Shown: one piece after another, positions 7,834-29,467 of the stretch | Numbering within the stretch: the stretch's first letter is position 1 | How the letters are laid out: the number at the start of each line of letters is the position of its first letter | From: Pseudomonadales bacterium | GTDB lineage: Bacteria > Patescibacteriota > Microgenomatia > UBA1400 > PJMF01 | Reading direction: 5' to 3' | Length of the DNA stretch: 64,000 bases | NCBI GenBank assembly: GCA_020632255.1 | Contig: JACKFX010000001.1 | Location: forward strand, 58,734-122,733 | Notes under the pieces: model-generated | The model's database searches: none | Told to the model about the DNA's origin: nothing | The model's input: only the letters and a program-made list of their open reading frames with translations | Translations under genes and position numbers: made by a program

Positions 7834-8676
7834 GTGAAAAAATCATATAGTTGCGCTACCATGGGAAAACAACGTCTTACTATCACGCTTTCTGAATCAA
7901 TTTTGAAAAAAGTAGATAAGTATATTGATGGTGTTCAGATTCGAAATCGTTCACATGCAATCGAGAGTTTGCTCGAAAATAGTTTTTCTCCTTCTATAGA
8001 CACTGCAGTGATTTTGGCAGGGGGTCGCAAAGCGACTCACATTCCAGCCCTTAAAAAAATTGGCGAGCGTACGGTTTTGGCGATTACCTTTGAGAAATTA
8101 CGCGACTGTGGTATAGATCGTATCATTATCTGTGCAGGGACTGTTACTTCCTCGATCAAAAAAGAGTTTGGCGATGGGAGTGCGCTCGGTATCACTCTTC
8201 TCTACTCTCATGAGCCTGAAGAAATGGGTACTGCTGGTGCCTTGAAGTTAGCAGAGAACCTTCTGAGTGAAGATCCCTTTTTAGTGATTCATGCTGATGT
8301 TCTGAGCGATCTTAACTTGGCTAGCTTGATAGAATTTCACCAGCAAGAGAACACAGCCGCAACTATTGCGGTAAAGCCTGCTATGGGTACGAAAGAGTTG
8401 GGACACGTGTTTTTGAGCGGTAATAAAATTCAGGCTTTCTTAGATTCGAGTGAACAGCGAGGTATCAGTATTATCAATACCGGCATGTATGTTTTGGAGC
8501 CAAGTGTTCTAGGAAGCATTAAGAAAAACTCAAAATTATATTTAGAAAAAGACATCTTTCCCAATTTGGCAAAGCAGGGTGATCTTAGTGCCTTTGTATT
8601 TCAGGGTAATTGGTTTGATGTGACTAAAGATGAGCCATTTCAAGAGGCATCTGACGTCTGGGATTCTGATGATTAA
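7834..8676 (+). CDS. ribbon-helix-helix domain fused to a sugar-phosphate nucleotidyltransferase (NTP_transferase)
   Basis: N-terminus KQRLTITLSESILKKVDKYI… is RHH/CopG-like. AVILAGGRKATHIP…GTAGAL is the G-x-G-T-R nucleotidyltransferase signature. Confidence 0.55.
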   Translation: MKKSYSCATMGKQRLTITLSESILKKVDKYIDGVQIRNRSHAIESLLENSFSPSIDTAVILAGGRKATHIPALKKIGERTVLAITFEKLRDCGIDRIIICAGTVTSSIKKEFGDGSALGITLLYSHEPEEMGTAGALKLAENLLSEDPFLVIHADVLSDLNLASLIEFHQQENTAATIAVKPAMGTKELGHVFLSGNKIQAFLDSSEQRGISIINTGMYVLEPSVLGSIKKNSKLYLEKDIFPNLAKQGDLSAFVFQGNWFDVTKDEPFQEASDVWDSDD

Positions 8677-8785: not shown

Positions 8786-8983
8786 GTGCCAATAGGAGGA
8801 AAAGAACGACTTCATGCCCAACGGCTTGACATGTACGGGCGATTGTGTACAGAGTGGCTAATTAAGAAAGTCACAGATGATAGAGCTGAGGCAGCAGCAA
8901 AAGCAGCAGCAGAAGCAGCAGAAGCAGCACAAGCAGCACAAGCAGCACAAACAGACAAAGACCAAGGTGAATCACAGAGATAA
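8786..8983 (+). CDS. possible small protein with an Ala/Glu/Gln low-complexity tail (GTG start); doubtful
   Basis: The ORF rides on a gcagca/gaagca simple-sequence tract (8883-8945). A possible promoter TTGCCA…TATACT lies at ~8714-8745. Confidence 0.15.
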   Translation: MPIGGKERLHAQRLDMYGRLCTEWLIKKVTDDRAEAAAKAAAEAAEAAQAAQAAQTDKDQGESQR

Positions 8984-9055
8984 GACCCCAAAGGTAGGCG
9001 CGTTTTTTGTCATTAAGCGATTTAGGACTAGCCACTTTTTACTTCTTGTCAAATA

Positions 9056-9084
9056 AAAAAACCCTATCAGGGTTTTTTTATTTG
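9056..9084. terminator. hairpin aaaaaaaccctatcagggttttttt downstream of tRNA-Gly
   Basis: Perfect stem ccct/aggg with a short loop between A- and T-runs. Bidirectional. Confidence 0.5.
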
Positions 9085-9157
9085 AGCGGGAAACGGGGCT
9101 CGAACCCGCGACCTTCTCCTTGGCAAGGAGACACTCTAGCCACTGAGCTATTCCCGC
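9085..9157 (-). tRNA. tRNA-Gly(GCC)
   Basis: Reverse complement folds as a cloverleaf: acceptor GCGGGAA/TTCCCGC, anticodon loop TTGCCAA, T-loop TTCGAGC, discriminator U. Confidence 0.85.
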
Positions 9158-9603
9158 AGATGTGACGATCTGATTATACAACGCGAAGCAAGATGTGTGA
9201 ATAAGAATATCGAGCTATTTCTCTGAGAAGGTTTTTTTAATTAAGTCGGACTTCTATATGATGCTTGGTCTTATCAAGCATGACAAATATACGTATTGCC
9301 TCTATTGATTATATTTAATCTGATTAAGTTGCTATCGATGAGAGGGTGCGCGCAGATAATTCAATCGGTGACAGAATTTCTTCGCAGACCCTTTATTTAA
9401 TGGATTGCGAGGGGTATGATTGCTGTATGTACAATTTTGGTATAACGTCTAATGATAAAAATAGAGTTTTAGGCAATGTTGCCGAAAAAAGTAGTAAGTT
9501 TCTTTTTAAGTGGTTTGGAATTGGTCTGGTTGGATTTATTAATTTTGTTAAATTACTTCTTTCTTCTGCTTTAGGGAAATAATTTTTTGTTCTTTTTTTA
9601 AAA

Positions 9604-9630
9604 AAAAGCCCGTGCCGTAGCACGGGCTTT
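9604..9630. terminator. bidirectional hairpin aaaaagcccgtgc-cgta-gcacgggcttt
   Basis: 9-bp GC-rich stem between A- and T-runs, at the 3' end of the lipoprotein gene. Confidence 0.5.
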
Positions 9631-9633
9631 GCC

Positions 9634-9936
9634 CTATTGGGGTTGGGGCCAGCACTGAGTGCTGATCCCCGTTCCCCTCATCTGCATACTTACCTCTCGT
9701 ATGCAGTTAAACTTTTGGCCGTTGGTCGTCGTAATCACGATCTCCATGGTGAAGACCGTGGCACACATCAGCGAACCCTCGCATATTTGTGTGCTCGTAA
9801 TGTTCATCGTCTCTACTACCAGCCCCCCGTCGCCCACTGCGACTGGGGGGGGAGTTGGGACTGAGGATGGCCCTCCGGCACATCCTGATATAACAAACAA
9901 AATAAAAAACAAAACAATCACCAATATGTTTCTCAT
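9634..9936 (-). CDS. small Cys-rich lipoprotein (lipobox VISGC)
   Basis: Signal peptide plus lipobox, Pro-rich linker, six cysteines. Confidence 0.45.
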   Translation of the reverse strand: MRNILVIVLFFILFVISGCAGGPSSVPTPPPVAVGDGGLVVETMNITSTQICEGSLMCATVFTMEIVITTTNGQKFNCIREVSMQMRGTGISTQCWPQPQ

Positions 9937-9962
9937 GTTCTTCTCCCTCCTGCTTTGAATTT

Positions 9963-9980
9963 ACGTCTATAAAGACGTAG
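9963..9980. promoter_or_regulatory. 18-bp near-perfect palindrome TACGTCTATAAAGACGTA upstream of the lipoprotein gene
   Basis: 8 of 9 positions self-complementary. Lies 27-44 nt upstream of the start codon at 9936. Confidence 0.3.
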
Positions 9981-10855
9981 AGCAGGAGTTAGCAACCAAT
10001 ACAAATTGATATTAGTTTGTAACTCCTGCCCTAAAACAAGAGAGAGAGGTTAAAATTTGCGATTACCCGAATTAATGAGCAATTACATACTGATGAGACG
10101 CAAGGTAGCAGTTTGTATGTAGGGGGTCATATTATATCATTATATATGTAAATATGTAAATATTATAAGTCATAAATGATGATGAATGTCGATTGGAGTA
10201 AGCACACAGAGTTAGAACTCTAGTATCCAAATGATTCTATGGGTTTTGCTATTACCTTAGTATACGAGTGAATGTATGAAAAACTCATTGTTACTCGTAG
10301 TGCTCAGGCTGTTAAGTTGCGTGTTAAAAGAGGAAACAACTCATACATCTTTTGTGTTTGTAGTACGGGAACAGATATTGATGAAGGATCTATGGCATCG
10401 GTTGTATTTGATTACAAAGAACACTAGTTTAGCTTTGTATGACGTGCCTTCTTCAGAGGGTAACAAAATAACTAAATCGGAAAGATTGCATGCCATCAAT
10501 GCATCTGTTTAAGGAGGAGTGTTTTTCAAGCAGTTGTTCATGTATTAAGTCTAGTCAAACACAACTGGCTCAGTGAGTACGGGATATCAGAGAGATTAGA
10601 GAGAAATATCATACTCACGGCCTTGTGATGGATGTGAGAATCTATTGCGCAATGAAACGTTTGTCATTTACCACACAATCAAACAACTCATCAGTTGTCA
10701 TTTTACTTGTGTTGAGCAAATAGTTGTTATTGTTGGGATTATTTTTGAGTTGATTTAGTTGCGTTCCCGATCTTTTCTGTACTCATAGGTAAAAAATCAG
10801 GACTTATTACAATGGAGAAATGTATTATCACGTTGAGGAAAGTTAAGTGATAGTG

Positions 10856-10928
10856 TGCCAAGCTGAGGAGTCGAACCTCAATCTCATGTTTTTCAGACAT
10901 GCGCCGTGACCACCTTGGCTAGCTTGGC
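10856..10928 (-). tRNA. tRNA-Phe(GAA)
   Basis: Acceptor GCCAAGC/GCTTGGC, anticodon stem catgt/acatg with loop CTGAAAA, T-arm GAGGTTCGACTCCTC. Confidence 0.8.
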
Positions 10929-10948
10929 TTAAGCATAACGAGCGAGTG

Positions 10949-11021
10949 TGGAATGTAAGGGACTCGAACCCCTGACCCTTCGGATGTAAGCCGAATGCTC
11001 TACCAACTGAGCTAACATTCC
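10949..11021 (-). tRNA. tRNA-Val(TAC)
   Basis: Acceptor GGAATGT/ACATTCC, D-arm GCTCAGTTGGTAGAGC, anticodon loop CTTACAT, T-arm AGGGGTTCGAGTCCCTT. Confidence 0.85.
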
Positions 11022-11055
11022 ACTTGTTGTTTTATGGTTTCAACCACAAACACTG

Positions 11056-11136
11056 TGCCCAGGAGAGGACTTGAACCTCCACACCTTTCGGCATACGCAC
11101 CTCAAGCGTACGTGTATACCATTTCACCACCTGGGC
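11056..11136 (-). tRNA. tRNA-Leu(GAG)
   Basis: Acceptor GCCCAGG/CCTGGGC, anticodon loop CTTGAGG, long variable arm, T-arm GGAGGTTCAAGTCCTCTC. Confidence 0.85.
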
Positions 11137-11283
11137 ATGTAATGTGTATGAGTCACAGCTAACGCGACTCAAGGCATACATTATAAAATATAATCCCTCT
11201 TTGGGGAAGTAGTATCTGGTGGGCATCTTCTCAAGATATGCTCATCATTAGTTCACTTCCTTATTGGAACTATGCAAACTCTG

Positions 11284-11367
11284 TGCCAGAGAAGGGAGTC
11301 GAACCCTTACGCCCGTAATGAACACTAGTTCCTGAAACTAGCCTGTCTACCATTCCAGCACTCTGGC
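11284..11367 (-). tRNA. tRNA-Leu(CAG)
   Basis: Acceptor GCCAGAG/CTCTGGC, anticodon stem ctagt/actag with loop TTCAGGA, long variable arm. Confidence 0.85.
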
Positions 11368-11449
11368 AATTTGTTTCGTAGCGACATGACAACAGAGGTT
11401 ATTGTACCGTGTTTTGAGGTTTTTTTCAGAAGAAAGACTAAAATATTGT

Positions 11450-12142
11450 TTATGTTTTGACTGAGTGTTTAAATTTTTGGAAAAAGGCTTCGATAATGAT
11501 GTCTCTGGCTTGATCAAAGTGACAGTATGTTGTGTTGATGGTCAAGTCGTACGAGTTGACTTTCTTGGGGTCTTTTTTAAAGTATTGTTTGACAAACTCG
11601 TTGCGTTCTTTTTCTACTTTGGCTATGATTTCCCTTGCTTTGGCCATGTTATGACCTTCGTAGTCGATAGCTCTCTGGACACGGATGTTGTACGGTGCAG
11701 TAATATTGACATGAAGTCCTTTAGCGAATGGGGTGATGAAGTTAGCTCCTCTTCCCAAAATGACGCATTTGCCTTTATAGGCATATGCCAGTACAACTTT
11801 GATGAGTTCGGTGATGTAGGCAGAATCATCAATGTATTCTGCATTCAAAACTGAATGAACCACATCCTCGATTTTTGTACGATGTTTCTCGTCGATCGCT
11901 TTGATGATGGCTTTGCGTTTTTTTGTAGATCGTGCGATTTCATCAATGATTTGTTCGTCTACAAACTCAAAGCCTAGCTTTTCCGCAATTGCTTCTGCAA
12001 TTGGGGCTCCCCCACTGCCGGGCTCACGAGCAATGGTGATAAAGGGGCGAGTGAAAGAATTTTCAGCTTGAACGGTAATGTCTTCTTTCAAGTTGAAAAA
12101 CGTTAAAGCTTTGTTGATCAGGGGATAGTATCGTGTATACAT
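11450..12142 (-). CDS. cytidylate kinase-like family protein (P-loop-like ITIAREPGSGG)
   Basis: N-terminal ITIAREPGSGG and the overall length match the cytidylate kinase-like family (Cytidylate_kin2). Confidence 0.5.
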   Translation of the reverse strand: MYTRYYPLINKALTFFNLKEDITVQAENSFTRPFITIAREPGSGGAPIAEAIAEKLGFEFVDEQIIDEIARSTKKRKAIIKAIDEKHRTKIEDVVHSVLNAEYIDDSAYITELIKVVLAYAYKGKCVILGRGANFITPFAKGLHVNITAPYNIRVQRAIDYEGHNMAKAREIIAKVEKERNEFVKQYFKKDPKKVNSYDLTINTTYCHFDQARDIIIEAFFQKFKHSVKT

Positions 12143-12262
12143 ACCCTATATTATACCGTCATATGGACTCTTTGTCTAGTTTTAGCTCGGGGCTTTTTTG
12201 AGAGTTGTGTGGAGTGGTATAATATAATTTGCGAATAAAAACTCGCCTCTTTATTTTGCCAT

Positions 12263-12336
12263 GCACCAGTAGCTCAGCTGGATAGAGCACCGGTCTTCGG
12301 AACCGGGTGTCGGGGGTTCGAATCCCTCCTGGTGCA
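12263..12336 (+). tRNA. tRNA-Arg(TCG)
   Basis: Acceptor GCACCAG/CTGGTGC, D-arm GCTCAGCTGGATAGAGC, anticodon loop CTTCGGA, T-arm GGGGGTTCGAATCCCTC. Confidence 0.85.
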
Positions 12337-12596
12337 CAGATTTTCTTATTTAGAATTACGCCGTTATCGCTTTTTTTTCTTTCCAAACAGGTCAGCGATT
12401 GCTCCTGTTGGGATTTCTGTAATCACAAAAGAAATAATCATGGTGAATTCAAGTAATCCGAAGCCCGCACAGTCAGTAAACCTCAGATAGAAGAGTGCCC
12501 AAATTGCTATCCAAAACCATGCATGATCGAGTGTAGTCAATAGGTATACGATTGGAATATTTTTTTGAAAGGTTTGATGCCTTTGTGTGCACTGCT

Positions 12597-13502
12597 CTAT
12601 TCTACTTCATTTGTTGTGCTCTGCCCCACTTTTCTTGCGACAGTATTGAAGCCAGTATCGAATAGATTCCAGATACTTGAAGCAATGATCGCGGCTAGGA
12701 TTGGTGTGGTAATCACAGTTGCTCCGGGAATGGAGAGGGCGCTGATGAGCGCTGAAAGTTCGAGGGTGTATTTGGGAACTCTTGCAATAAGTCCTGCGAG
12801 TAGTGGTGTAATTCCTAGTGCCAACAATGTTGAGTAGGGATTAAAGACAATGGATGATCCATCTTTGAGTCGTTTGTATTCTGAGTATGCAGCAAGTAAA
12901 GCCGTCCCACTATAGAGAACAAGGATTGCTGTGGTAAATGCTGGTAAATTAGCTGTCGCGGCCGCTGCAATGATACTGATGCGCATTGATTCATAGATCA
13001 GAAACATAGTTGGTAATGCCACTAGGCTGTAGGTAACTGCATGTTTAAACTCAGTTGGTACCCAGTTCGTACCGTGTTTTTTGCTGGTGTTAATGACTTC
13101 AGAAGCTGATTTTTTGGTTAAACTTATTTTGTGCAAAAATGCAGTGCCTTTGGTTTTCATTGCTTCCCAGACTGATTTTGATCCTTGCTCTTCTAGCGCT
13201 GCTTGGATGCCATCCATTGACATTGATTGGATATATCTGATGGCCTGCTGAATGAATGGTTCGAGCTCACCAAAATCGTTTGCAACTTCTTCGTTTTGGA
13301 GGCGATATGAGATTTCTTCATAGAGGGCTTCATTGTTATCTGCCACAAAGGTGGCAATTTCTGCATTCAGACTAGAATGAGTTTCGAGAAACGCATCAAG
13401 TTTGGAAAGACTGTGAGCAAGTTCAAAAAGTGAGGGTTTCTGTTGCTCAGACAAGTGATTCATATGTGTTTTTATCTTGGTCAAAAATATTTGAGATATC
13501 AT
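12597..13502 (-). CDS. membrane protein, unknown function (soluble N-domain, C-terminal TM helices)
   Basis: Hydrophobic C-terminal half. Confidence 0.45.
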   Translation of the reverse strand: MISQIFLTKIKTHMNHLSEQQKPSLFELAHSLSKLDAFLETHSSLNAEIATFVADNNEALYEEISYRLQNEEVANDFGELEPFIQQAIRYIQSMSMDGIQAALEEQGSKSVWEAMKTKGTAFLHKISLTKKSASEVINTSKKHGTNWVPTEFKHAVTYSLVALPTMFLIYESMRISIIAAAATANLPAFTTAILVLYSGTALLAAYSEYKRLKDGSSIVFNPYSTLLALGITPLLAGLIARVPKYTLELSALISALSIPGATVITTPILAAIIASSIWNLFDTGFNTVARKVGQSTTNEVE

Positions 13503-13820
13503 ACTGCATCTTTTTTAAATGTGCCAGTGGAATGGGAATGCGCGCCGCCAGGCGGCGCGCATACATCAATTACATCAATCCATGAGCTAAGGCTTGAAAT
13601 GCCTGAAAATATTCAAAAGTCTTTCCTTCTGCTATACCCATAATTACATGTTTATTATCTGAGTTCACAAAAGCTGTTTGAGAGTGTACGATTTGCGATC
13701 TTCCATTTAAAGCAGGATGTTTTTTGGTCTGTTAACAACAGTATCAAACCCTTTGATATCAAGATGTTTGGTTCTTCATATATATTTGCTATACTGACTG
13801 GGTAGTAACAAAAAAAGAAA

Positions 13821-14348
13821 GTGTGTATGACAGCATTATTACCTCGAGTTCACATGGTTGGCGACGAAGAAGCTAAGGGTAAGGTCCTAGAGTTATTTGA
13901 GGCTATGAAAGCAAGCAAAGGCGCTGTGCCAAAGTGGATGCGTGTCATGGCAAACTGTGACGACATTTTATTGGGTTTTTTTGGATTGTTTAAAGCCACT
14001 ATGGATGACGCTCCGCTTGAAAGCAAAATGAAGTGGAAGCTTGCGTATTATGTTTCTGAACTGAACAAATGTGAGTTTTGCGTAAGTGTTTCTGAAATGC
14101 AGCTCAAGCAGTTAGGTATGCAGCCAGAAGAAATGGGGAATCTGAAGGCAGCTGCAACAGGGCGTGAAGCATTGGCCTTTGAGTATGTTGAAGCCGTGAA
14201 CGATCATGCCTACAAAATGGAACCAGAATTGTTAGAGCGTGTCAAAGCCGAGTTCTCTGACGAAGAATTGGTAGAGCTGACCAGTGTCGTTGGACTTTTC
14301 AGTTTTATTAACCGATTTAATGACGCTCTTGGCGTTCTGCCAGAGTAA
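13821..14348 (+). CDS. carboxymuconolactone decarboxylase / AhpD-like family protein
   Basis: CEFCVSVSE and the helical repeat pattern are typical of the CMD/AhpD fold. Confidence 0.5.
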   Translation: MCMTALLPRVHMVGDEEAKGKVLELFEAMKASKGAVPKWMRVMANCDDILLGFFGLFKATMDDAPLESKMKWKLAYYVSELNKCEFCVSVSEMQLKQLGMQPEEMGNLKAAATGREALAFEYVEAVNDHAYKMEPELLERVKAEFSDEELVELTSVVGLFSFINRFNDALGVLPE

Positions 14349-14375
14349 TAAGAGTTTTTTCAGGTAACAAAAAAG

Positions 14376-14400
14376 GGCCAGGCTTTCAGCCTGGCCCTAA
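14376..14400. terminator. hairpin gggccaggct-ttc-agcctggccc
   Basis: 10-bp perfect GC-rich stem after the CMD gene. Confidence 0.5.
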
Positions 14401-14401
14401 C

Positions 14402-14638
14402 AATATTGCCATAGCTAACAGCGCCAAATTGAATAAATCCAACAATCTTTCCTCCTAATTCAGCTACAACAATTTCTTCTGTCCTAATTGCTTGTGAAAA
14501 ATAATCTTCATCTCTTGTTTTTAATGCTTTAGTCAAGTCTTCTGGTGACATTTCATCGCCAAAAGTTTGGGTATATGTTTCTTGGGCTAATATTGCTATT
14601 TGATTTATATCGTTTTCATTAGCATTTCGTATTATCAT
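14402..14638 (-). pseudogene. GNAT acetyltransferase N-terminal fragment (truncated before motif A)
   Basis: The 92-aa ORF has a GNAT-like N-terminus but no Q/RxxGxG/A motif. Its last codons run into the terminator hairpin. Confidence 0.3.
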
Positions 14639-14676
14639 GAGATGAATTATAGCTTTTACGTTATACTTTAGCTAAT

Positions 14677-15111
14677 ATGAATATCATTTTTAGAAAAGCA
14701 CTAACAGCAGAAGACATTAGCGGTTGTAAATTAGTAGATACAAAAATGGGTTTTACTACTAATGACAAGGTATTTGCTAAATCAATTGAAGATGGAAGAC
14801 TGCTTGTTGCTAAATTGGACAATCAAATAATTGGATATATTCGTTATGGTTATCTTTGGGACAATGAAGTTGCTGTACTACAAATGATTCGTGTTTTACC
14901 AGAAGAGCGAGGAAAAGGGGTTGGCAGAGAGTTAGTTCAATCAGTAGAAGAAGTACTTAAAAAACTTGGTGTTAGACAACTGCTAAGCTCTACTGATGAA
15001 AGCAATGACAATTCATATAAGTTTCACAAATCATTAGGTTTTAAAGAATGTGGTGAACTAGATATTAATGAAGACCAGTTGAAAGAAGTATTTTTTTCAA
15101 AAAAAATTTAG
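14677..15111 (+). CDS. GNAT family N-acetyltransferase
   Basis: IRVLPEERGKGVGRELV motif A. Confidence 0.65.
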   Translation: MNIIFRKALTAEDISGCKLVDTKMGFTTNDKVFAKSIEDGRLLVAKLDNQIIGYIRYGYLWDNEVAVLQMIRVLPEERGKGVGRELVQSVEEVLKKLGVRQLLSSTDESNDNSYKFHKSLGFKECGELDINEDQLKEVFFSKKI

Positions 15112-15118
15112 CTTTATA

Positions 15119-15391
15119 TATCAATAAAAGTTATCTTGTAGGTCAACTGAAACTTCTCGGACTTTGCCCTGCGAGGCTTTCGGCAGCGAACCAAGAATTA
15201 GACTCCAATAGCTAACTCATTTAATAAAAAAACCAGCCTGAGGCTGGATTTTTTGTATGTGGGGAAAGAACTCTGACACGGAACTCCCCTATTCCTTAAG
15301 TATGAACTTGGTTTTTTCTTATTACAACTTAGACATGATGCTGTTGAGGTGGAAAAATAGGTGGGTTGGCTAGAACTGTTATAATGAAACT
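15119..15391 (+). repeat. cassette-boundary unit K0 (diverged tRNA-Lys 3' copy ggtcaactgaaact + module B + terminator + promoter segment)
   Basis: Shares ttatcttgt.ggtcaactg, module B, a terminator hairpin and the acacggaactcccct…gtatgaac…ggtgga…ctgttataat segment with K1/K2 and with Pro-array unit P5. Confidence 0.6.
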
Positions 15392-15769
15392 ATGAAAAAT
15401 ATTACAACTGAACTAATGGTAGATAATATGGCCAAATCTATAAATTTTTATAGAGATATTTTGGGGTTTACTATTATTATTTCTGAACCTAAAGAAACCC
15501 CATTTTTTGTCATTTTACAAAATGGTTCTGTAGAGCTAATGCTTTACCATAGAAATCAATTTTCGCAGGAAATTCCAAAGTTCAAAGATATGTCAGTTGG
15601 GGGATCTATTGCTTTGTATATAGGTGTTGAGGAAGTAGAGGAACTTTATAAGAGTCTAAGTGGTAAAGTAAAAATTATCCAAGAACTACATACTACAGAC
15701 TATGGTTCTGTGGAATTTTCTTGTGAAGATAACTCTGGATATGTCTTAATGTTTAATGAAAGAAATTAA
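15392..15769 (+). CDS. VOC/glyoxalase/bleomycin-resistance family protein
   Basis: Length and the LMVDNMAKSINFYRDILGF N-terminus fit the VOC fold. Starts 6 nt after the TATAAT box (leaderless). Confidence 0.55.
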   Translation: MKNITTELMVDNMAKSINFYRDILGFTIIISEPKETPFFVILQNGSVELMLYHRNQFSQEIPKFKDMSVGGSIALYIGVEEVEELYKSLSGKVKIIQELHTTDYGSVEFSCEDNSGYVLMFNERN

Positions 15770-15771
15770 TT

Positions 15772-16266
15772 ATGAAAATAAATATTACAGTGGGTTTTCC
15801 TGAATCTAGATGGGAAGATTACAAAAAAATTAGAATACAAGCTCTCCAAGATGTTCCTCAAGCATTTCTAGATGATATTGACCACGCAGAAAGTGAGCCA
15901 GAATCATTTTGGGTTGAAAGAGCTAAAAAAGTTACCTTTGCTGAAATTGATGAAAAAGTTGTAGGTATTGTTGGATTTTACCAAGAGCAGAAAGTAAAAC
16001 AAAAACATATTGCTAATGTTGTGGGTGTTTATGTATTGCCAGAATACCGTGGAATGAAAATTGGTTATCAGTTGCTTGTTAAAGTACTAGAAGAAATTAA
16101 GAAGAATGAGGAAATCAAGGTAATAAATTTGGGTGTAGTGGATACTCAGAAGGCTGCCATGAAATTGTATAAATCATTTGGATTTATTGAAGTTGGAAAA
16201 ATTAGATACGCAGTAAATGTTAATGGACAATATTTTGACGAGTATTTAATGCAAATGTATTTGTAG
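15772..16266 (+). CDS. GNAT family N-acetyltransferase
   Basis: VLPEYRGMKIGYQLLVKVLEE motif A. Confidence 0.65.
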   Translation: MKINITVGFPESRWEDYKKIRIQALQDVPQAFLDDIDHAESEPESFWVERAKKVTFAEIDEKVVGIVGFYQEQKVKQKHIANVVGVYVLPEYRGMKIGYQLLVKVLEEIKKNEEIKVINLGVVDTQKAAMKLYKSFGFIEVGKIRYAVNVNGQYFDEYLMQMYL

Positions 16267-16283
16267 AATATATTGATAAATCA

Positions 16284-16586
16284 ATGTAATTTATCTTGTG
16301 GGTCAACTGGGACTGCTCGCTTGCTGTGCAAGCTGTGCGATGCTTGTACTGTTTGTGGCTATACAATTACTACTCGCATGGCGAACCAAGGGTTTGATTC
16401 CAACAATTATCCCAGCATATAAAAAAACTAGCATGATGCTAGTTTTTTTATATGTGTGACACGAACTCTGATACGGAACTCCCCTCTTTCTCAAGTATGA
16501 ACCTAGTTTTTTCTTATTATGATTTGGATATTAGGTTGTTGCGGTGGAAGAATCGGTGGGTCAGATAGTGCTGTTATAATCTAGTT
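16284..16586 (+). repeat. cassette-boundary unit K1 (exact 16-nt tRNA-Lys 3' copy tgggtcaactgggact + module A + terminator + extended -10 promoter)
   Basis: About 99% identical to K2 over ~270 bp. Terminator aaaaaaactagcatgatgctagttttttt. TGtTATAAT at 16572-16580, 6 nt before the ATG at 16587. Confidence 0.7.
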
Positions 16587-17363
16587 ATGCAAGAAAAGGT
16601 TCAAATTAAAAACAAAAAAGGATTACTACTTTCAGCAGTAATAGAAAGACCTGATGATACAGGCAAGTATCCTACAGTTCTCTTTTTACACGGTTTTAAG
16701 GGATATAAAGAGGAAGCTACTTACACTGACTTAGCTCAGAGATTTCTTGAGCATGGCATAGCAAGTGTTTGTTTTGATGCTTCAGGATTTGGAGACAGTG
16801 AAGGCACGTTAGAAGACGACTACCGATTTTCTAATTATATTGATGACACAGAAGCTGTATTTACTTGGTTATTAAAACAAGACTTTGCGGATACAAACAA
16901 ACTCGGTGTTGTTGGACAAAGTATGGGAGGAGCTCAAACAATTCTTTTTGCTTCAAATCACCCTGAGTTAAAAATAGCTATTTCTATATCTCCACCAGAT
17001 AAAATAGGCACAGATGATGCTTTGGGTGCTGTTAAAGATCAATGGAAAAATATGGGATATCTTCAAGAGATGAGTTCCAGGTATGGTAAAGAAATAAAAA
17101 TTCCTTATGTATATCTTGAGGACGCAATGCAATATGACTTTGCTAAGTTGGCAGCAAATGTCCAGTGCCCTCTCGTAGTGGTTCTTGGTGAAAAAGATGA
17201 TATTGTTTTGCCAACTCAAACTGAGCGTGTTTTCAATGCTGCAAAGGAACCTAAAATTCTTTTACGTTTTGAGAACATGGATCACTTTTATAAGCGAGAT
17301 AAGAAAGTTTTGAATGAAGTTGGTAGAAAAATAACAAATATAATTGTTGAATATTTACATTGA
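16587..17363 (+). CDS. alpha/beta hydrolase (GQSMGG nucleophile elbow)
   Basis: HGFKGYKEE, the GxSxG motif GQSMGG, and a C-terminal His region. Confidence 0.6.
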   Translation: MQEKVQIKNKKGLLLSAVIERPDDTGKYPTVLFLHGFKGYKEEATYTDLAQRFLEHGIASVCFDASGFGDSEGTLEDDYRFSNYIDDTEAVFTWLLKQDFADTNKLGVVGQSMGGAQTILFASNHPELKIAISISPPDKIGTDDALGAVKDQWKNMGYLQEMSSRYGKEIKIPYVYLEDAMQYDFAKLAANVQCPLVVVLGEKDDIVLPTQTERVFNAAKEPKILLRFENMDHFYKRDKKVLNEVGRKITNIIVEYLH

Positions 17364-17373
17364 TATATCAATT

Positions 17374-17646
17374 AAAGTCGTCTTGTGGGTCAACTGGGAC
17401 TGCTCGCTTGCTGTGCAAGCTGTGCGATGCTTGTACTGTTTGTGGCTATACAATTACTACTCGCATGGCGAACCAAGGGTTTGATTCCAACAATTATCCC
17501 AGCATATAAAAAAACTAGCATGATGCTAGTTTTTTTATATGTGTGACACGAACTCTGATACGGAACTCCCCTCTTTCTCAAGTATGAACCTAGTTTTTTC
17601 TTTTTATGATTTGGATATTAGGTTGTTGCGGTGGAGGAATCGGTGG
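17374..17646 (+). repeat. cassette-boundary unit K2
   Basis: Near-identical to K1 (exact tRNA-Lys 3' copy at 17386-17401, module A, terminator, promoter segment). Confidence 0.7.
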
Positions 17647-18549
17647 TTAAACTGATTTCTTTTTATTTCTTGAAGCAATTTGAGCTCCTATTATTGCTAA
17701 AGTTCCACCAATTATAAATGGAATTGTAATTCTTTCACCCAAAATTAATGCTGCTAAGCCTATCCCAGTAATTGGCTGTAAATAAGTAAAGAGAGATGCT
17801 GTTATAGCTGAACCATGTTTCAAAGCATATTGATACGATAAATAGAAAATACCCGTACCGACTAAACCAATATACACACCACTTAAAATATGTATTGAGC
17901 TATACCCCGTTGGAAATCCGAAAGTCATGAATTCATACCCTACAAAAGGTAAGCTAATTAAGAAAGTAACTAGACTAAAATAAAAGGTTAACGCTATTGG
18001 AGAAACACTCCAAGATTTTTGTTTTTCTTTACTGATTAGTCCATAAGATAAGAAAGCTAATGAAGCTAGAAAAATAAGCAAGTTGCCAAATACAGACATA
18101 GAGCCAAATCCTTTATCTAATAAAGGCAAAAGAACAATTATTCCCACTCCAAAAAGACCAATTATTATGCCCACTAACTTTTGGCTATCAATCTTATGTT
18201 TTTTTATGAACATAACATAAATAGCTGTCATAGCTGGCACACCTGCATAAATTAATGGAGAGAATGATGCCTGTGTAAATTGAAGAGCAATAAATAATAA
18301 AATGGGGTTAAGAGATCCAATTATTGATACTGGTAGCAGATCTTTGAATTTTTGAATACTAAATTCTTTGGATTTGATTACCAACGGCAATAAAACTATT
18401 GATGCAAAAAAGAATCTAAGTGCTACAACTGTGAAAGGTTTGAAAAAAGATAGAGCAAATTTAGCTGCAACAGGTACTGAACCACCTGTAATTGCTGCAA
18501 TTATTATGAAAATTAGTGAAGACGAAAAGATTTTTGAATTTTTGTTCAT
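17647..18549 (-). CDS. EamA/DMT family transporter (10 TM)
   Basis: Two repeated 5-TM halves with the G-rich EamA signature. Confidence 0.55.
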   Translation of the reverse strand: MNKNSKIFSSSLIFIIIAAITGGSVPVAAKFALSFFKPFTVVALRFFFASIVLLPLVIKSKEFSIQKFKDLLPVSIIGSLNPILLFIALQFTQASFSPLIYAGVPAMTAIYVMFIKKHKIDSQKLVGIIIGLFGVGIIVLLPLLDKGFGSMSVFGNLLIFLASLAFLSYGLISKEKQKSWSVSPIALTFYFSLVTFLISLPFVGYEFMTFGFPTGYSSIHILSGVYIGLVGTGIFYLSYQYALKHGSAITASLFTYLQPITGIGLAALILGERITIPFIIGGTLAIIGAQIASRNKKKSV

Positions 18550-18618
18550 GAGAATATTCTACCATCTATGATATAAATTATAACTTGATAAGCTAATTGA
18601 GGAAATAAGACTATAAAT

Positions 18619-18791
18619 CAATCTAAGTTTTCTTGTGGGTCAACTGGGACTGCTCGCTTGCTGTGCAAGCTGTGCGATGCTTGTACTGTTTGTGGCTATA
18701 CAATTACTACTCGCATGGCGAACCAAGGGTTTGATTCCAACAATTATCCCAGCATATAAAAAAACTAGCATGATGCTAGTTTTTTTATATG
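18619..18791 (+). repeat. cassette-boundary unit K3, directly abutting tRNA-Lys
   Basis: Exact tRNA-Lys 3' copy at 18636-18651, module A and terminator. The promoter segment is replaced by the tRNA itself. Confidence 0.7.
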
Positions 18792-18865
18792 TGGGTCAAC
18801 TGGGACTCGAACCCAGGACACCCTGCTTAAGAGGCAGGTGCTCTAACCGACTGAGCTATTGACCC
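18792..18865 (-). tRNA. tRNA-Lys(CTT)
   Basis: Acceptor GGGTCAA/TTGACCC, D-arm GCTCAGTCGGTTAGAGC, anticodon loop CTCTTAA, T-arm CTGGGTTCGAGTCCCAG. Confidence 0.85.
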
Positions 18866-24312: not shown

Positions 24313-24330
24313 CTGTTGGACTGTGTTGAA
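24313..24330 (+). repeat. boundary motif, diverged copy (ctgttggactgtgttgaa)
   Basis: Immediately downstream of the HD-domain gene stop codon. Confidence 0.5.
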
Positions 24331-24335
24331 ATTAG

Positions 24336-24908
24336 TTATTTAACAAATACTTCTTTTAAAGCTTCATATCTATATCGAACATCTTCTCTTACATCGTCAA
24401 AGAAAATCTTTTTGTGAAAATCTCTATCTAATTTTTCGGTAACCCATTCTAAAAATTCATCATATGTTTTATTTTCAGGAATGTGCAACCAAGTAAATTG
24501 AACATAAAAATCAGTTGTAAGATGTGCTAAAGCATCAGCAGTTGCCATAACTTTTCCTTCAAGTGATTCAGGTAAGTGTCCATTTCTACAAGAATGAGGT
24601 TTAATTACTTCATTGAGGATTCTAGATATCTCTATTTCAGAGTAGTCAGCCTCTTTAAGAACTTCAGTTGCTTTTTGCATTGATATTTCCTCATGTGCTT
24701 CAGCATGTCGATATATAAAAGCATCTCCAAAATCGTGGAGCAGAGCACCTGCAACCGCTAAATCTTCGTTCGCTCCATGTATTTTAGCTAACTCTTCAGT
24801 CCTCGCTACAACAATAGGAACATGATTTTTCCACACCCATTGCCCAAACGGTTCTATACAATCTAAATATGCTCTTTCTACTAATTCATAGACCTTTTTA
24901 TGCTTCAT
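24336..24908 (-). CDS. HD-domain phosphohydrolase
   Basis: H…HD…D motif (ALLHDFGD). Confidence 0.6.
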   Translation of the reverse strand: MKHKKVYELVERAYLDCIEPFGQWVWKNHVPIVVARTEELAKIHGANEDLAVAGALLHDFGDAFIYRHAEAHEEISMQKATEVLKEADYSEIEISRILNEVIKPHSCRNGHLPESLEGKVMATADALAHLTTDFYVQFTWLHIPENKTYDEFLEWVTEKLDRDFHKKIFFDDVREDVRYRYEALKEVFVK

Positions 24909-25218
24909 TACTTATTCTTTCTTCTAAAGAGTTCATTGTTTGACCAAATTCTTTTTCTAAATCAATATTGTACTGATCCGCAAGAATAATAATTGACCAC
25001 AAGCAATCTGATAACTCATGTTTCAACTTTTCATCTACATCATCTATCTCACGTACTCCACTTTTAGCTTGGATTAGTTTAGATAAATCACCAACATCCC
25101 CTACAAAACCACTCATCAATTCTTGTGGAGTCCATTCTCTTCCATATTTTTCTTTTTCAAGTTGAAAATATTTTTGTCTAACTGCTAAAGCTTTTTGAAT
25201 TATTTGCTGAAATGTCAT
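24898..25218 (-). CDS. MazG-like nucleotide pyrophosphohydrolase
   Basis: ELMSGFVGDVGDL…ELSDCLWSIIILADQYNIDLE matches the MazG/EEXXE helical core. Overlaps the HD gene by 11 nt (operon). Confidence 0.5.
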   Translation of the reverse strand: MTFQQIIQKALAVRQKYFQLEKEKYGREWTPQELMSGFVGDVGDLSKLIQAKSGVREIDDVDEKLKHELSDCLWSIIILADQYNIDLEKEFGQTMNSLEERISNEA

Positions 25219-25324
25219 AGATTAGCTTGAGTTTTTACTCTTGGGAAAATCATATCAGTCGAGATGCCATTTAGTAAGCATGAGTTATAGTAATTGACAG
25301 TGTAGCTCTTAAAGTGGATGATTC

Positions 25325-26446
25325 TTAGGTTTGAGACTGACTAACCTCTAAAAGAATTGCCTTAATGGATTTGTTAAATTCTCTGATTAACCTTTTCGAT
25401 TTTTTCCTAAATTCTGGCTGTACATTCGATTTTCTTCGAATCGAATGCAACATCTTGTTGTAGGGAATTGATGCTGGATTATCATCAATTTGCCAAGTGC
25501 CTTGTATGAAATGACTTAGGACATATCGTTGATCATTGGTAGTATTTTGTATGGAGTATTCGGAAAGTAACTCTTCCCATGCGGTCATATGACTTTGCCA
25601 AGCGTCTGCCAATTTATGTTCAATAGCATCCCTTAATTCAACTGACTTTTGCACTGCCTTTATCGCAGTGCAAGCATTCATTTCGTATATGCATTTTCTG
25701 ATGTAATCATTAAACCCAGATGGATTTTGAGGATTAAATTGAACAATTGGAAAGCTCCTCCATTCAACTGCTAATTTTTGGTCCTCTGTTTCATGCAAAG
25801 GAGTTATTTTACTTTCTGATCGGTTGGAAAAATATGGAAAGTGTATCTGTGTGTTTCCGTCTTTCAATGGTGTGAATCGACGATGAATTTCACAGCAATC
25901 AGTTGAAGGTGCTGAAGTGGCACTATTAATGATGCCACTTGCTTCAAGAATTGCTCGAGCATCCATAACTTCTGTATGCTCTGGTGAAAGTTTAATTCCT
26001 CCATATGTTTCATGAGCTACGGTTTCACCTTCAAATGCACTATTTCTAATTGCAAATAGTAGAGAGCGAAGAAGAGTGATATTACTGTCTGCCGGATATG
26101 TGACCCCTTCTCTAATTTGATACATATGTTCATTTGGAACAAATGTATCATTAAATGTTGTTACATCAGCTTGTTTTCCAGCTAAAGTTTGAGCTTGCAA
26201 TAGGATATTTAAACGAGTACGACTTCCAGATAAACGTGCATCTCTATAAGCTTTATACATTGCTGGATCAGTGTATTCTATTTCCAAGCCGAATGTTGGA
26301 GTATATGGATTACTTCTTAAGTTGAGTTCTTGGTTCTTTTTTCTTATACGTACAAGAAAATCGTAGATTGCTTCGACTTCTTGATAAAATTTGGCACTTG
26401 AAACATAAGCCTTCTCATCACCCTTTCTATACAACCACCCATGCAA
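25325..26446 (-). CDS. hypothetical protein (373 aa)
   Basis: Long ORF with no recognisable motifs. Confidence 0.45.
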   Translation of the reverse strand: MHGWLYRKGDEKAYVSSAKFYQEVEAIYDFLVRIRKKNQELNLRSNPYTPTFGLEIEYTDPAMYKAYRDARLSGSRTRLNILLQAQTLAGKQADVTTFNDTFVPNEHMYQIREGVTYPADSNITLLRSLLFAIRNSAFEGETVAHETYGGIKLSPEHTEVMDARAILEASGIINSATSAPSTDCCEIHRRFTPLKDGNTQIHFPYFSNRSESKITPLHETEDQKLAVEWRSFPIVQFNPQNPSGFNDYIRKCIYEMNACTAIKAVQKSVELRDAIEHKLADAWQSHMTAWEELLSEYSIQNTTNDQRYVLSHFIQGTWQIDDNPASIPYNKMLHSIRRKSNVQPEFRKKSKRLIREFNKSIKAILLEVSQSQT

Positions 26447-26502
26447 AGTAGACTCTACTTTATGGTGTACTAATAAAAAATGAAAGGCAACGATATCTTG
26501 AG

Positions 26503-26784
26503 TTAGTAGATTTTTTCTAATGGAGATAGAGATTCTAAATCAATGTGACATTGTTCTAAAGCTCGAAGAAAAGCAGTATGATCTATTACGAAGTCGGTAT
26601 CAGGTCTGTTTATCATGCGCGCATTTCGATGTTTGGAAAGAGGGTGTTGATGACTTGCTTGGTTTGTATAGATTTTAACGATATCGATAGCATCTTGATC
26701 GATGAGGGGGATTTCCATCTTCTCTCGCCTCGTTAAAAATGCTGCATAAATTTCTTTTACTTGTTCTTTGTCTAAAAAAATCAT
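26503..26784 (-). CDS. hypothetical protein (93 aa)
   Basis: ORF only. Confidence 0.35.
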   Translation of the reverse strand: MIFLDKEQVKEIYAAFLTRREKMEIPLIDQDAIDIVKIYTNQASHQHPLSKHRNARMINRPDTDFVIDHTAFLRALEQCHIDLESLSPLEKIY

Positions 26785-26917
26785 GTAGTAATCCCGATAT
26801 ATGTATTAATCATTGAGTAATTACTCTCATTGTACATGAAATGTTGATTTTTTTGAAAGAATTGCCATAACATTGCTCACTAGCAGGTATGTTTTATTCG
26901 GTGACTTTTTTTTATGT

Positions 26918-26943
26918 ATGACACTGTTGGACTATGTTGGAAC
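26918..26943 (+). repeat. boundary motif copy (atgacaCTGTTGGACTATGTTGGAAC)
   Basis: Exact core ctgttggactatgttggaac. Confidence 0.6.
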
Positions 26944-27229
26944 TTCACTCTTTGAATATTCAGGTGAAAACCAAAATCTAAGTTCTGTCTTTGAAGAACA
27001 AAAAAATCTGGAACACCAGTGTCATCTATGTTTACAGAATTATTGAGATAAATATTTGAATAACCAAAAGATACTTTTTTCTTTTTAATAAGGAAGCCAT
27101 CTTCTGACTCAAAGTTGCATTAGAAGTATTCTTTACTTCTGAATTACAAGCACATTAAAATATATATTTAGGTCTAGACCCCAACCTTTTCCTTTGTTTT
27201 TTCTTGAGTAATCTGTAATAATACTATTT

Positions 27230-28516: not shown

Positions 28517-28533
28517 TTTATTCCTCATTTGTG

Positions 28534-28548
28534 TGATGCCCGAGTTGG
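28534..28548 (+). repeat. copy of the tRNA-Gln 3' end (tgatgcccgaGttgg, 1 mismatch)
   Basis: Matches the reverse complement of the tRNA-Gln 3' terminus at 32498-32512. Confidence 0.6.
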
Positions 28549-28742
28549 TCCTCAGCCTTTGCTCTGGACATTTCCTCGCAGAAGTTCAATCAGATTCGCG
28601 ATTCGCTACTATTTACATCTAATTAAGGAAGTCACATGCACTAAGCAGGAAGTTCGCAGGTGCTCACTTCTTGCTGGCGCGACGGGTTCAAATCAATACT
28701 GACAGCCACAAAAAAAGATAGCATGCTGCTATCTTTTTTCAT

Positions 28743-28770
28743 GGATGGATCTATTGGACTATGTTGGAAC
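28743..28770 (+). repeat. boundary motif copy (ggatggatctattggactatgttggaac), preceded by terminator hairpin 28713-28740
   Basis: Core matches 18/20. Hairpin aaaaaaagatagcatgctgctatctttttt is upstream. Confidence 0.6.
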
Positions 28771-28789
28771 CATTCTACTGATGTAATTG

Positions 28790-29161
28790 TCACTCTGTTT
28801 TAGCGAGAAGTGTATATCTATTGTGTCCATCCTCATCAAACTTTTTTGCTTTTGTTTGTGCAACCAATTTTTCCCAAACAATTTGTGCTTCAGGTGAAAG
28901 ATTTGTGCCAGAGTACAATGGAAACCCATACTTCTGTAGAGCGACTTGGTTCATTAGGTATAGTCTCCTCGTGGCAAGATTTCTTTTTATATGGTTTGCG
29001 TCAGTCCATGTCCAGTCGACAAAAGGCTTGTTTCGAAAATATTTTTGAGTTTCTGGGTTATTTGAATTTACATTGAATCGTAATGTCGAACATCCAATAA
29101 TATTGTCATTTTCTATGTCAACAAAGTATGTTAGCTCATCTTCATCTCCAGTGTCATACAT
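28790..29161 (-). CDS. hypothetical protein (123 aa)
   Basis: ORF only. Confidence 0.4.
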   Translation of the reverse strand: MYDTGDEDELTYFVDIENDNIIGCSTLRFNVNSNNPETQKYFRNKPFVDWTWTDANHIKRNLATRRLYLMNQVALQKYGFPLYSGTNLSPEAQIVWEKLVAQTKAKKFDEDGHNRYTLLAKTE

Positions 29162-29414
29162 TTTTATTTGTCTAGCTAAATATGTCTCTGTTCCGTCTGG
29201 ATGATGGTATAACTGGAACTCTTCAAAGTTGCCAGTTTTATAATCATCTGGATGTACTAGTGAAGCACTTTTTTTTCGAAGTGTTGCATTACATGCTGAG
29301 GAACATCTGCAGGTGTGATCTGTATAGGTACAAAAGATCTGGATTCTAAAATGTACCTTGGTGCTTCAGTCATGTTCAAAGTATATAGTAAGATATATAG
29401 TTCTATCAACAAGT

Positions 29415-29440: not shown

Positions 29441-29467
29441 GTAATCTTTCAGCTTTTCAGAAGTCTT

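Follow-up and report, generated by a model that had tools for sequence, protein, structure and literature searches.

On a 64,000-nt stretch of contig JACKFX010000001.1 (assembly GCA_020632255.1, positions 58,734 to 122,733 of the forward strand; "the window" below), from a bacterium of the candidate phyla radiation (CPR, or Patescibacteria), the gene for tRNA-Lys(CTT) heads a tandem array of three or four cassettes of about 1 kb (unit size, 1.1-1.25 kb), each of which contains one or two genes (Table 1). The sequence TGGGTCAACTGGGACT is the reverse complement of the last 16 nt of tRNA-Lys and covers residues 58-60 of the T-loop, the 3′ strands of the T-stem and of the acceptor stem, and the discriminator. 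It occurs exactly at 16299, 17386, and 18636, besides 18792 within tRNA-Lys itself, and a copy with three mismatches is present at 15139-15154 (five matches in all vs. 0.27 expected; 0 of 100 shuffles reached five). An initial annotation of this DNA had reported the three exact copies and a diverged one at 15141; the exact copies were found again, and the diverged copy exists but at the position just given.

Each exact copy (c) is followed, on the plus strand, by a module (M) of 78 nt and then by an A-run, a hairpin, and a T-run that form a bidirectional terminator. In the conserved blocks K1 and K2, a segment of about 105 nt comes after the terminator and ends at 16559 and 17646; it is absent from K3. 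This segment is called psi here; its end resembles a degenerate tRNA 3′ end, a second site of this kind inside each unit. Copy, module, and terminator are identical over 157 of 157 nt in K1, K2, and K3, and K1 equals K2 in 259 of 261 positions (99.2%), up to 16559, in agreement with the value of about 99% given initially. Conservation also reaches past the 16-mer on the cargo side, with TCTTG and an AT-rich stretch, (A)TTGATATAT(CAAT), next to each copy. This side (P′, about 30 nt) is AT-rich, contains TTGATATATCAA-like palindromes with TCTTG at its end, and is merely 73-77% alike among units; for cargo 3, it lies at 18606-18635, between the EamA gene and the c of K3. The conserved noncoding block amounts to about 260-330 nt per unit. 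A simple terminator scan detected the hairpin of K0 alone; those of K1 to K3 are visible in the RNA fold.

The initial annotation gave each copy a module, a terminator, and a promoter segment. Module and terminator are indeed there, but K2 has no promoter and K3 has neither the segment nor a promoter. For K0, the initial reading was a divergent form of this module; what is present there is a shorter variant (15155-15195), 91% identical to one found at tRNA-Pro, and the psi segment of K0 has 76% identity with that of K1. CGAG motifs are common to all module types at about 10 times background, and are not independent enough to build on. As to the cargo, all six open reading frames (ORFs) of the Lys array belong to GNAT, VOC, hydrolase, or EamA families (Pfam), which bears out the VOC + GNAT, alpha/beta hydrolase, and EamA assignments made before. 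The cargo occurs in either orientation relative to the block, on both strands. Since no array ORF is a recombinase, the description as integrase-less units bounded by copies of the tRNA 3′ end also stands.

Table 1. Coordinates of the tRNA-anchored arrays and their parts in the window
Feature	Positions	Strand	Composition and support
tRNA-Lys(CTT), array anchor	18791-18865	minus	ARAGORN; Rfam tRNA model 74.2 bits; last 16 nt + CA form the repeated core
K3, cargo-less unit adjoining tRNA-Lys	18636-18790	minus	terminator 18758-18786; long module M 18652-18729; exact 16-nt c 18636-18651
Cargo 3, EamA-family transporter, 300 aa	17647-18549	minus	Pfam EamA 1.4e-37
K2 conserved block	17386-17646	minus	c 17386-17401; M 17402-17479; terminator 17508-17536; psi 17542-17646; without promoter
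Cargo 2, alpha/beta hydrolase (gene 16587-17363)	16572-17363	plus	Pfam; extended -10 promoter TGTTATAAT-N6-ATG at 16572-16589
K1 conserved block	16299-16559	minus	c 16299-16314; M 16315-16392; terminator 16421-16449; psi 16455-16559
Cargo 1, VOC/glyoxalase (15392-15769) + GNAT (15772-16266)	15377-16266	plus	Pfam; TGTTATAAT-N6-ATG promoter at 15377
K0, oldest unit	15139-15364	minus	decayed c 15139-15154 (3 mismatches); short module 15155-15195; terminator 15226-15254; psi
Remaining variable interval, tRNA-Arg to recognizable cassettes	12400-15138		301-aa membrane protein; CMD-like protein; GNAT fragment (14360-14638); GNAT (14677-15111)
tRNA-Pro(TGG) array	54577-59752	minus	tRNA at 59678-59752; copies 59557, 59397, 58083 exact; 56404 and 54577 with 2 mismatches each
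tRNA-Gln(TTG) array	24313-32570	minus	tRNA at 32499-32570; copies 30889 exact, 28535 decayed; different module, same layout
tRNA-Leu island	1-5775	plus	tRNA-Leu cut by the window edge (1-76); perfect 64-nt direct repeat at 166-229 and 5712-5775
TGNTATAAT-N6-ATG sites	15377, 16572, 32387(-), 50959(-), 58965(-)		two in the Lys array

The array is not a single locus. When the 3′ ends of all tRNAs of the window were searched for copies, three further tRNAs besides tRNA-Lys gave matches (Pro, Gln, and Leu): The Gln and Pro arrays share the layout described above, and tRNA-Leu anchors a related island that bears an integrase. At tRNA-Pro, each copy of the tRNA end is fused to a long or a short module of the tRNA-Lys family, the long form being 65-85% identical to that family and the short form 91% identical to the module of K0. 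There, c is exact while M differs by 15-35% between units, and two cargo-less units stand in tandem (59397-59676). The cargo includes GNAT, DUF218, and small membrane proteins. The number of mismatches in c, counted outward from the tRNA, is 0, 0, 0, 3 for Lys, 0, 0, 0, 2, 2 for Pro, and 0, 3 for Gln; this polarity is the one expected from the successive insertion at the tRNA that had been proposed for the Lys array. The variable island at tRNA-Pro (about 46000-59677) far exceeds the part with recognizable copies of the tRNA end, and the extra DNA holds a malic-enzyme-like gene and genes for HAD, EamA, a DUF5122 beta-propeller protein, and PP2C. Repeats are also found at 50041, 51036, and 56720; their ends read GTCGACAC, similar to the end of tRNA-Pro.

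In the tRNA-Gln array, a 20-mer psi site, CTGTTGGACTATGTTGGAAC, is present in seven copies (24313-31607), all in a single orientation, that separate single-gene cassettes. The same 20-mer is conserved exactly in other CPR organisms, at 5360 and 6028 of L023 and at 1583 and 2360 of L025 (L numbers denote loci fetched for comparison). In L025, an unrelated and more AT-rich contig, the two copies lie downstream of tRNA-Gln(CTG), between a methyltransferase/NUDIX pair, a toxin-antitoxin-like pair, and further genes. The tail of the psi-Gln site (5-8 nt) tracks the end of the local tRNA-Gln: TGATCA in L025 vs. GGGATCA in its tRNA-Gln(CTG), and GCCATCA in the window vs. GGGCATCA.

The junctions follow a common grammar. 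In the window, the tRNA is joined to a terminator-M-c unit in the Lys and Pro arrays and to P′ in the Gln array; tRNA-Pro of L004 and tRNA-Gln of L017 are likewise joined to a terminator-M-c unit. A c is followed by a terminator at 59557, and a psi by P′ at 30052. Judged from these junctions, the putative left half-site takes one of three forms (the 3′ end of a tRNA, an exact c with M before it, or the degenerate end of psi, similar to that of a tRNA); the putative right half-site is P′ plus cargo or a terminator-M-c unit. Identity with the tRNA starts at AGT of the T-loop in Lys and Pro, at GAAT of the T-loop in Gln, and in the 3′ strand of the T-stem in Leu, and in all four arrays it runs on to the discriminator plus one or two bases. 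Identity from the T-loop to the 3′ end is the classic footprint of tyrosine integrases that target tRNAs and cross over in the T-loop. With a block of identity that starts in the T-loop and reaches the tRNA 3′ end, the sites belong to the T-loop class of attachment sites. In a profile search (nhmmer) of the window and the fetched loci, M was observed solely in tRNA arrays, always in tRNA orientation; in these sequences, it was not seen at the non-tRNA sites that would have marked it, for the initial annotation, as a generic repeat. The cluster of tRNA genes for Gly, Phe, Val, Leu, Leu, and Arg (9084-12337, with Lys nearby) is conserved in distant relatives (L021, L041). No copies of the ends of the other tRNAs of this cluster were found in the window, and within it only the 3′ side of tRNA-Lys has cassettes.

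Several identities were considered for M. No known RNA in Rfam matches it, whether the gathering thresholds or E<=10 are applied. Folding as a structured RNA or as attC-like single-stranded DNA was assessed as well: M-c without the terminator reaches z values between -1.7 and +1.1 vs. shuffles (nine copies); the consensus fold of M is weak (-6.45 kcal/mol), and a strong fold (z -6.3) belonged to a stretch that included the terminator. The pair RYYYAAC/GTTRRRY is not present in M-c. As for an origin of M as a pseudo-tRNA from the 5′ half of the cognate tRNA, to which the 5′ part of M shows some likeness, alignments gave z <= 1.2 vs. shuffles, and only the generic T-arm motif CTTGGTTCG stands out. 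With no Rfam match, no fold above shuffles, and no significant resemblance to the cognate tRNA, M is taken to be conserved as sequence; it would be a putative binding region in double-stranded DNA and not an attC-like hairpin or an RNA gene. An origin from phages or satellites was rejected, since IMG/VR gave no match to the long or the short module or to the psi-Gln site. The word "satellite", used in the initial annotation, implies a helper, and none was found in these searches. The exact pattern of the long module occurs in only one other genome (L004) and nowhere in the JGI metagenomes. The exact psi-Gln 20-mer gave four loci: L025, which is informative; L028, where it lies inside a gene and is probably due to chance; and two short contigs without a tRNA.

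The motif TGNTATAAT-N6-ATG has five sites in the window vs. 0.08 expected; each starts a cargo gene of an array or island, and none occurs elsewhere in the window. The same type of start, with the 6-nt spacing to the ATG, is found in L025 and L036. The homology at the DNA level between the hydrolase gene of the window and a copy from Pacebacteria begins about 22 nt upstream of the ATG. Read from these positions, the promoter moves with the cargo gene and not with module M, to which it had been assigned initially. The cassettes thus carry their own promoters, and, with a promoter 6 nt before the ATG, the cargo mRNAs are probably leaderless.

The comparison with relatives, which the initial annotation had proposed as a check, shows that the flanking core genes (LCP, a 246-aa membrane protein, VIT1, and a 518-aa protein) are kept in L017, L021, L023, and L004 with 62-75% amino acid identity (62-73% for LCP). 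Among the cargo, only VOC has a homolog in the matching intervals (68% amino acid identity, at the same locus in L021). Since the relatives keep the flanks but differ in cargo, the array is not invariant among them. In L021, no repeats occur between tRNA-Arg and tRNA-Lys, although a psi relic is retained, and the syntenic interval contains no homolog of the genes at 12400-15138. In L023, a copy of the tRNA-Lys end is followed by an unresolved gap of 100 N before the tRNA. At tRNA-Pro of L004, one finds a terminator, a long M, c, a cassette with an APH-like kinase, and a decayed module; the nearest core gene in common (45583-45954) lies 13.7 kb from tRNA-Pro in the window vs. 1.6 kb in L004. 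In L017, tRNA-Gln is joined to a terminator-M-c unit and then to unrelated cargo, and the interval from LCP to tRNA-Gln contains unrelated genes in L017 and L023. The ORF adjoining tRNA-Lys in L021 was considered as a fragment of a large serine recombinase; neither Pfam nor PHROGs support this.

The hydrolase has just 42 detectable relatives, all in CPR. The copy in Pacebacteria (72% amino acid identity) lies 23 nt away from the tRNA-Leu(CAA) 3′ end; its orientation is the same, and it likewise begins with TGTTATAAT-N6-ATG. In GCA_054919695.1, another copy (72% amino acid identity) overlaps the 3′ end of tRNA-Lys(CTT), and the preceding gene has GNAT-like sequence. One cargo gene is therefore found at tRNA 3′ ends in three lineages, and these homologs have no flanking block in common.

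The 64-nt direct repeat of the tRNA-Leu island ends in the tRNA-Leu 3′ end. The island contains the sole tyrosine recombinase of the window (237-1049, minus strand, 270 aa), which is divergent from cassettes for an ADP-ribosyltransferase, an HNH endonuclease, and unknowns. These cassettes are separated by four 167-nt repeats (1141, 2039, 3133, and 4134). The repeats were tried as canonical attC sites: GTTAGGC and GCCTAAC stand 75 nt apart, yet no single-hairpin pairing is predicted. The recombinase scores on the integron-integrase and XerA models below their cut-offs (for IntI, 216 vs. 265 bits, in two stretches) and may belong to the Xer-related "Cand" subgroup (PMC8138268). In the Lys, Gln, and Pro arrays, no recombinase was found with Pfam or PHROGs, and a phmmer search with the recombinase against all ORFs of the window matched itself alone; the ORFs of these arrays have unrelated or unknown functions.

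The recombinase is unusually conserved, with 75-83% amino acid identity in the top 120 matches and 5471 matches at E<=1e-40; the neighboring LCP protein, by comparison, falls to 45-50%. The names of the matches span many CPR lineages (Moranbacteria, Portnoybacteria, Gracilibacteria, and Shapirobacteria). In L029 (8001-8888), the recombinase faces the 3′ end of a tRNA-Ser and is divergent from restriction-modification and OLD-type defense genes. In L030 (8001-8813), it adjoins restriction-modification and NACHT genes; directly downstream, at 8869-9188, lies a 150-nt tandem repeat, 95% identical, with at least two copies up to the contig end. This repeat recalls the tandem cargo-less units at tRNA-Pro, and ARAGORN gives no tRNA there. 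Upstream of the recombinase gene of the window (1100-1135), there is a lox-like sequence, ATAACTTCGTATAACATACAAAT, the first 13 nt of which equal a loxP arm. A lox-like sequence, TTTG(T/C)ATATTATACGAAAT, is also present in L029 (about 8000-8025) and L030 (about 7930-7955), and this conserved element may be the recombinase's own site.

Proteins identical to those of the window occur in the metagenome-assembled genome (MAG) GCA_020429005.1 and in many contigs from Logan, ENA, and NCBI. Without exception, the independent short-read contigs (L001-L016, L031-L035) stop within tRNA-Lys or one of the repeated blocks; perfect repeats of 157-261 nt cannot be ordered from short reads. These contigs confirm the cassettes and the points where they join the blocks, whereas contiguity is borne out by a second assembly (L001) for the stretch VOC-GNAT, K1, hydrolase only. 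Single cassettes come out of assembly as separate unitigs of about 1.0-1.15 kb; the one with EamA was recovered from at least nine samples, and its ends always fell in the repeats on either side. Look-ups with flank and cargo proteins gave only contigs of this kind, which break at the repeats, so that variation at the level of strains is not visible in them. As for the organism, it is a member of CPR/Patescibacteria and not a cyanobacterium. One source gives its name as Candidatus Woesebacteria; of the other genomes, the nearest is that of an "uncultured Patescibacteria group bacterium". The protein set of one MAG is labeled "Pseudomonadales bacterium", at odds with the Woesebacteria/Patescibacteria assignment of the relatives.

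With somewhat better than even confidence, we favor the reading that small cassettes with their own promoters were inserted by site-specific recombination at tRNA 3′ ends, by a recombinase supplied in trans. The tRNA-Lys locus would then be an accretion array of very small integrative gene cassettes that use tRNA 3′ ends and the copies of these ends as attachment sites. Toward the tRNA, a unit would consist of c (from T-loop residue 58 to the discriminator, plus CA), P′ (about 30 nt), cargo, psi (about 105 nt), terminator, M (about 80 nt), and the next c. Cassettes would enter and leave by conservative site-specific recombination, with the crossover in the segment between the tRNA T-loop and the 3′ end. 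M, psi, and P′ may act as double-stranded DNA binding arms for the recombinase and accessory proteins, and the short tRNA-matched segment would provide the homology, which would make the attachment site modular. The recombinase would be encoded elsewhere and act in trans. Besides the tRNA itself, any c or psi of an array could be used as a target, with integron-like stacking and reshuffling as the outcome. An exact c next to a diverged M, as in the Pro array, is expected under such insertion, because each c would once have been a working tRNA end and each M would have come with its own cassette. The complete identity of the K1 to K3 blocks would mean that the events are very recent or that the tandem copies have undergone gene conversion, which may have contributed as much as recent insertion.

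Several observations weigh against insertion by a recombinase in trans. No recombinase was identified for the sites of the Lys, Gln, and Pro arrays. A link between the arrays and the recombinase of the window was looked for and gained no support: the putative lox/dif-like site beside the latter (1100-1116) has no copy in the arrays. A cargo-less terminator-M-c unit adjoins tRNA-Lys, and tRNA-Pro has two in tandem; neither is predicted if elements merely integrate one after another at the tRNA. The simple model of the initial annotation, with displaced tRNA ends bounding the units, likewise leaves the cargo-less unit beside the tRNA and the internal psi unexplained. Cargo-less units need a second crossover site (psi) or secondary deletions, and, together with the psi sites, they indicate more than one kind of exchange. 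Perfect blocks of 157-261 nt beside P′ segments at 73-77% are explained by gene conversion or homologous recombination no less well than by independent insertions. The identity of VOC (68% of amino acids) compares with 62-64% for the neighboring core gene, and by this measure the VOC cassette seems to have been inherited vertically, so that the array would be old and static at least in part. The order hydrolase, EamA, tRNA-Lys is based on one assembly, and a circular junction, an empty site, or a difference in cassette number between strains is not visible in short-read contigs broken at the repeats.

Homology alone could also account for much of this. Blocks of 160-260 nt would serve as portable homology and, after DNA uptake, RecA-dependent recombination or gene conversion would swap, duplicate, and delete cassettes, the copies of the tRNA ends being old relics. 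The perfectly identical blocks that end abruptly beside P′, and an array without a recombinase gene, agree with it, and unequal crossing-over easily yields cargo-less terminator-M-c units. We nevertheless regard this explanation as unlikely. It leaves unexplained how c stays exact next to an M diverged by up to 35% in the Pro array, why one module family is joined to different tRNA ends, why the psi tails track the local tRNA end in different organisms, and why hydrolase homologs sit at tRNA ends where no flanking block is common to them. On the other hand, the units could be decay products of full-size integrative elements (prophages, tycheposon-like islands, or integrative conjugative and integrative mobilizable elements, ICEs and IMEs), that is, att-flanked remnants of the kind known as cis-mobilizable elements (CIMEs) stacked at a tRNA. 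Tandem accretion and partial-tRNA remnants are well documented (10.1101/2020.12.28.424599; PMC5704250), the distal c copies are decayed, a GNAT fragment is present at 14360-14638, and the tRNA-Leu island still has its recombinase. Such decay is improbable here, however, with no fragments of integrase, replication, or structural genes in the Lys, Gln, and Pro arrays, and with units that are uniformly about 1 kb and have intact ORFs, promoters, and terminators of their own. The 100% identity of the block in three units is contrary to slow independent decay, and a unit of cargo size (promoter + hydrolase) abuts tRNA ends in other lineages.

The block could, alternatively, be a functional RNA, or an insulator made of terminator and promoter, that spread as a nonautonomous repeat similar to miniature inverted-repeat transposable elements, the tRNA-like end serving RNA processing. 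The strong bidirectional terminator in the block (from the z value of the stretch containing it and from the scan of K0), the promoters that come after the block in K0 and K1, and the fixed orientation of the block relative to the tRNA would suit this. It is hard to reconcile with an M-c that folds no better than shuffles once the terminator is removed, with the weak consensus fold and the missing Rfam match, with a promoter that belongs to the cargo and a cargo whose orientation varies relative to the block, and with the restriction of the block to tRNA arrays in the window and the fetched loci; it is very doubtful. Least probable, by a little, is a canonical integron, or an integrase-less cluster of attC sites (CALIN), served by the IntI-like recombinase at 237-1049. 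That protein does score on the integron-integrase model and adjoins a cassette array of its own. It stays below the IntI cut-off and matches in two stretches, however, and the Lys blocks have no R″/R′ core pair and no attC hairpin fold; the cassettes carry promoters, and the arrays contain no copy of the lox-like site that lies next to the recombinase gene. Site-specific insertion at tRNA ends, with the recombinase in trans, remains our preferred explanation, although the rivals still carry appreciable weight.

Among known systems, the tycheposons of Prochlorococcus are integrase-carrying elements of several kb, with replication modules or modules like those of phage-inducible chromosomal islands (PICIs), in one or two per genome (Hackl et al., 10.1101/2020.12.28.424599). 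The likeness concerns insertion at a tRNA 3′ end, elements separated only by partial tRNA copies, newcomers that displace older elements outward, and adaptive accessory cargo in a streamlined genome without classic mobile elements. Here, in contrast, the units are of about 1 kb with one or two genes, without an integrase or backbone gene and with a conserved noncoding block; three arrays and one integrase-bearing island occur within 64 kb, and the module family is not bound to one tRNA. The flanking full and partial tRNA copies of a tycheposon are present (exact copies of 16-18 nt), but not an integrase of the unit's own, nor hallmark genes of replication, packaging, or regulation among the ORFs of the Lys, Gln, and Pro arrays. 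The comparison drawn in the initial annotation thus holds for the partial-tRNA repeats and for no other hallmark. In Firmicutes, CIMEs (some of them at tRNA-Lys of Streptococcus agalactiae) are what is left of ICEs or IMEs after decay; they span many kb and are mobilized in cis by accretion with an incoming ICE (PMC5704250). They resemble the present units in being att-flanked, without integration or transfer genes, in tandem at the 3′ end of the target gene, and in a mobility that depends, here presumably, on a recombinase encoded elsewhere. The bare definition of a CIME fits, with copies of the tRNA end on both sides of each unit and no recombinase. The difference lies in the uniformity of the present units, which are single-gene cassettes with promoters; neither an ICE or IME nor intermediates of decay were seen, the search covering genes and pseudogenes in the 64-kb window and the related loci.

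With integrons and CALINs, the arrays share the ordered stacks of one-gene cassettes, a conserved recombination element between them, the more distal place of older, decayed units, and a content that varies among relatives. But the tRNA 3′ end takes the place of attI, with no intI or attI adjacent; the tRNA heads the array, and the only tyrosine recombinase is about 14 kb away at another tRNA. The sites are longer than 250 nt and conserved in sequence and are not folded attC hairpins, and the cassettes have a promoter and terminator of their own instead of depending on the integron promoter Pc. Integrative mobile elements exploiting Xer (IMEX) at dif, and the plasmid dif (pdif) modules of Acinetobacter, are small cargo modules without a recombinase that use a tyrosine recombinase of the host in trans and can form tandem arrays. 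They are similar in the small recombinase-less modules, and a recombinase that may be of the Xer-related "Cand" type is encoded in the window; they differ in that no dif-like 28-bp sites are seen to flank the present cassettes, the target being the tRNA end. The array works like a tycheposon island, a CIME stack, or an integron, and yet it lacks what defines tycheposons and integrons. No description of such an arrangement was found in the literature consulted on integrons or cassette arrays in CPR/Patescibacteria.

A broader proposal is tentative, and we consider it possible rather than probable: CPR/Patescibacteria would have an integron-like system of gene capture, in which several tRNA 3′ ends serve as platforms for self-promoted, leaderless single-gene cassettes, the sites are modular (an M or psi arm plus a tRNA-matched segment), and one chromosomal recombinase serves all arrays in trans. 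This recombinase may be the conserved 270-aa Xer-related ("Cand"-type) enzyme found beside tRNA genes and cassette or defense arrays. CPR genomes are about 1 Mb and are usually called poor in mobile elements, so that their route for the acquisition of accessory genes is unclear. In the 64-kb window, cassette arrays and islands anchored at tRNAs take up roughly a third to two fifths of the DNA, and their cargo (acetyltransferases, VOC proteins, hydrolases, transporters, and phosphatases) is of a type usual in niche adaptation and detoxification. If the cassettes are mobile, they would provide, for a major and uncultured portion of the bacterial tree, a compact route of gene flow, and their natural attachment sites, which would be retargetable by swapping a short tRNA-matched segment, would be relevant to the engineering of integrases. 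Since all the short-read assemblies examined break at the repeats, such arrays would be systematically missing or fragmented in CPR MAGs.

Away from the arrays with recognizable copies of tRNA ends, a 182-nt direct repeat, 76% identical, is present at 43711-43892 and 45349-45530. The second copy resembles a duplicated fragment of the HhH-GPD glycosylase gene (43058-43906).

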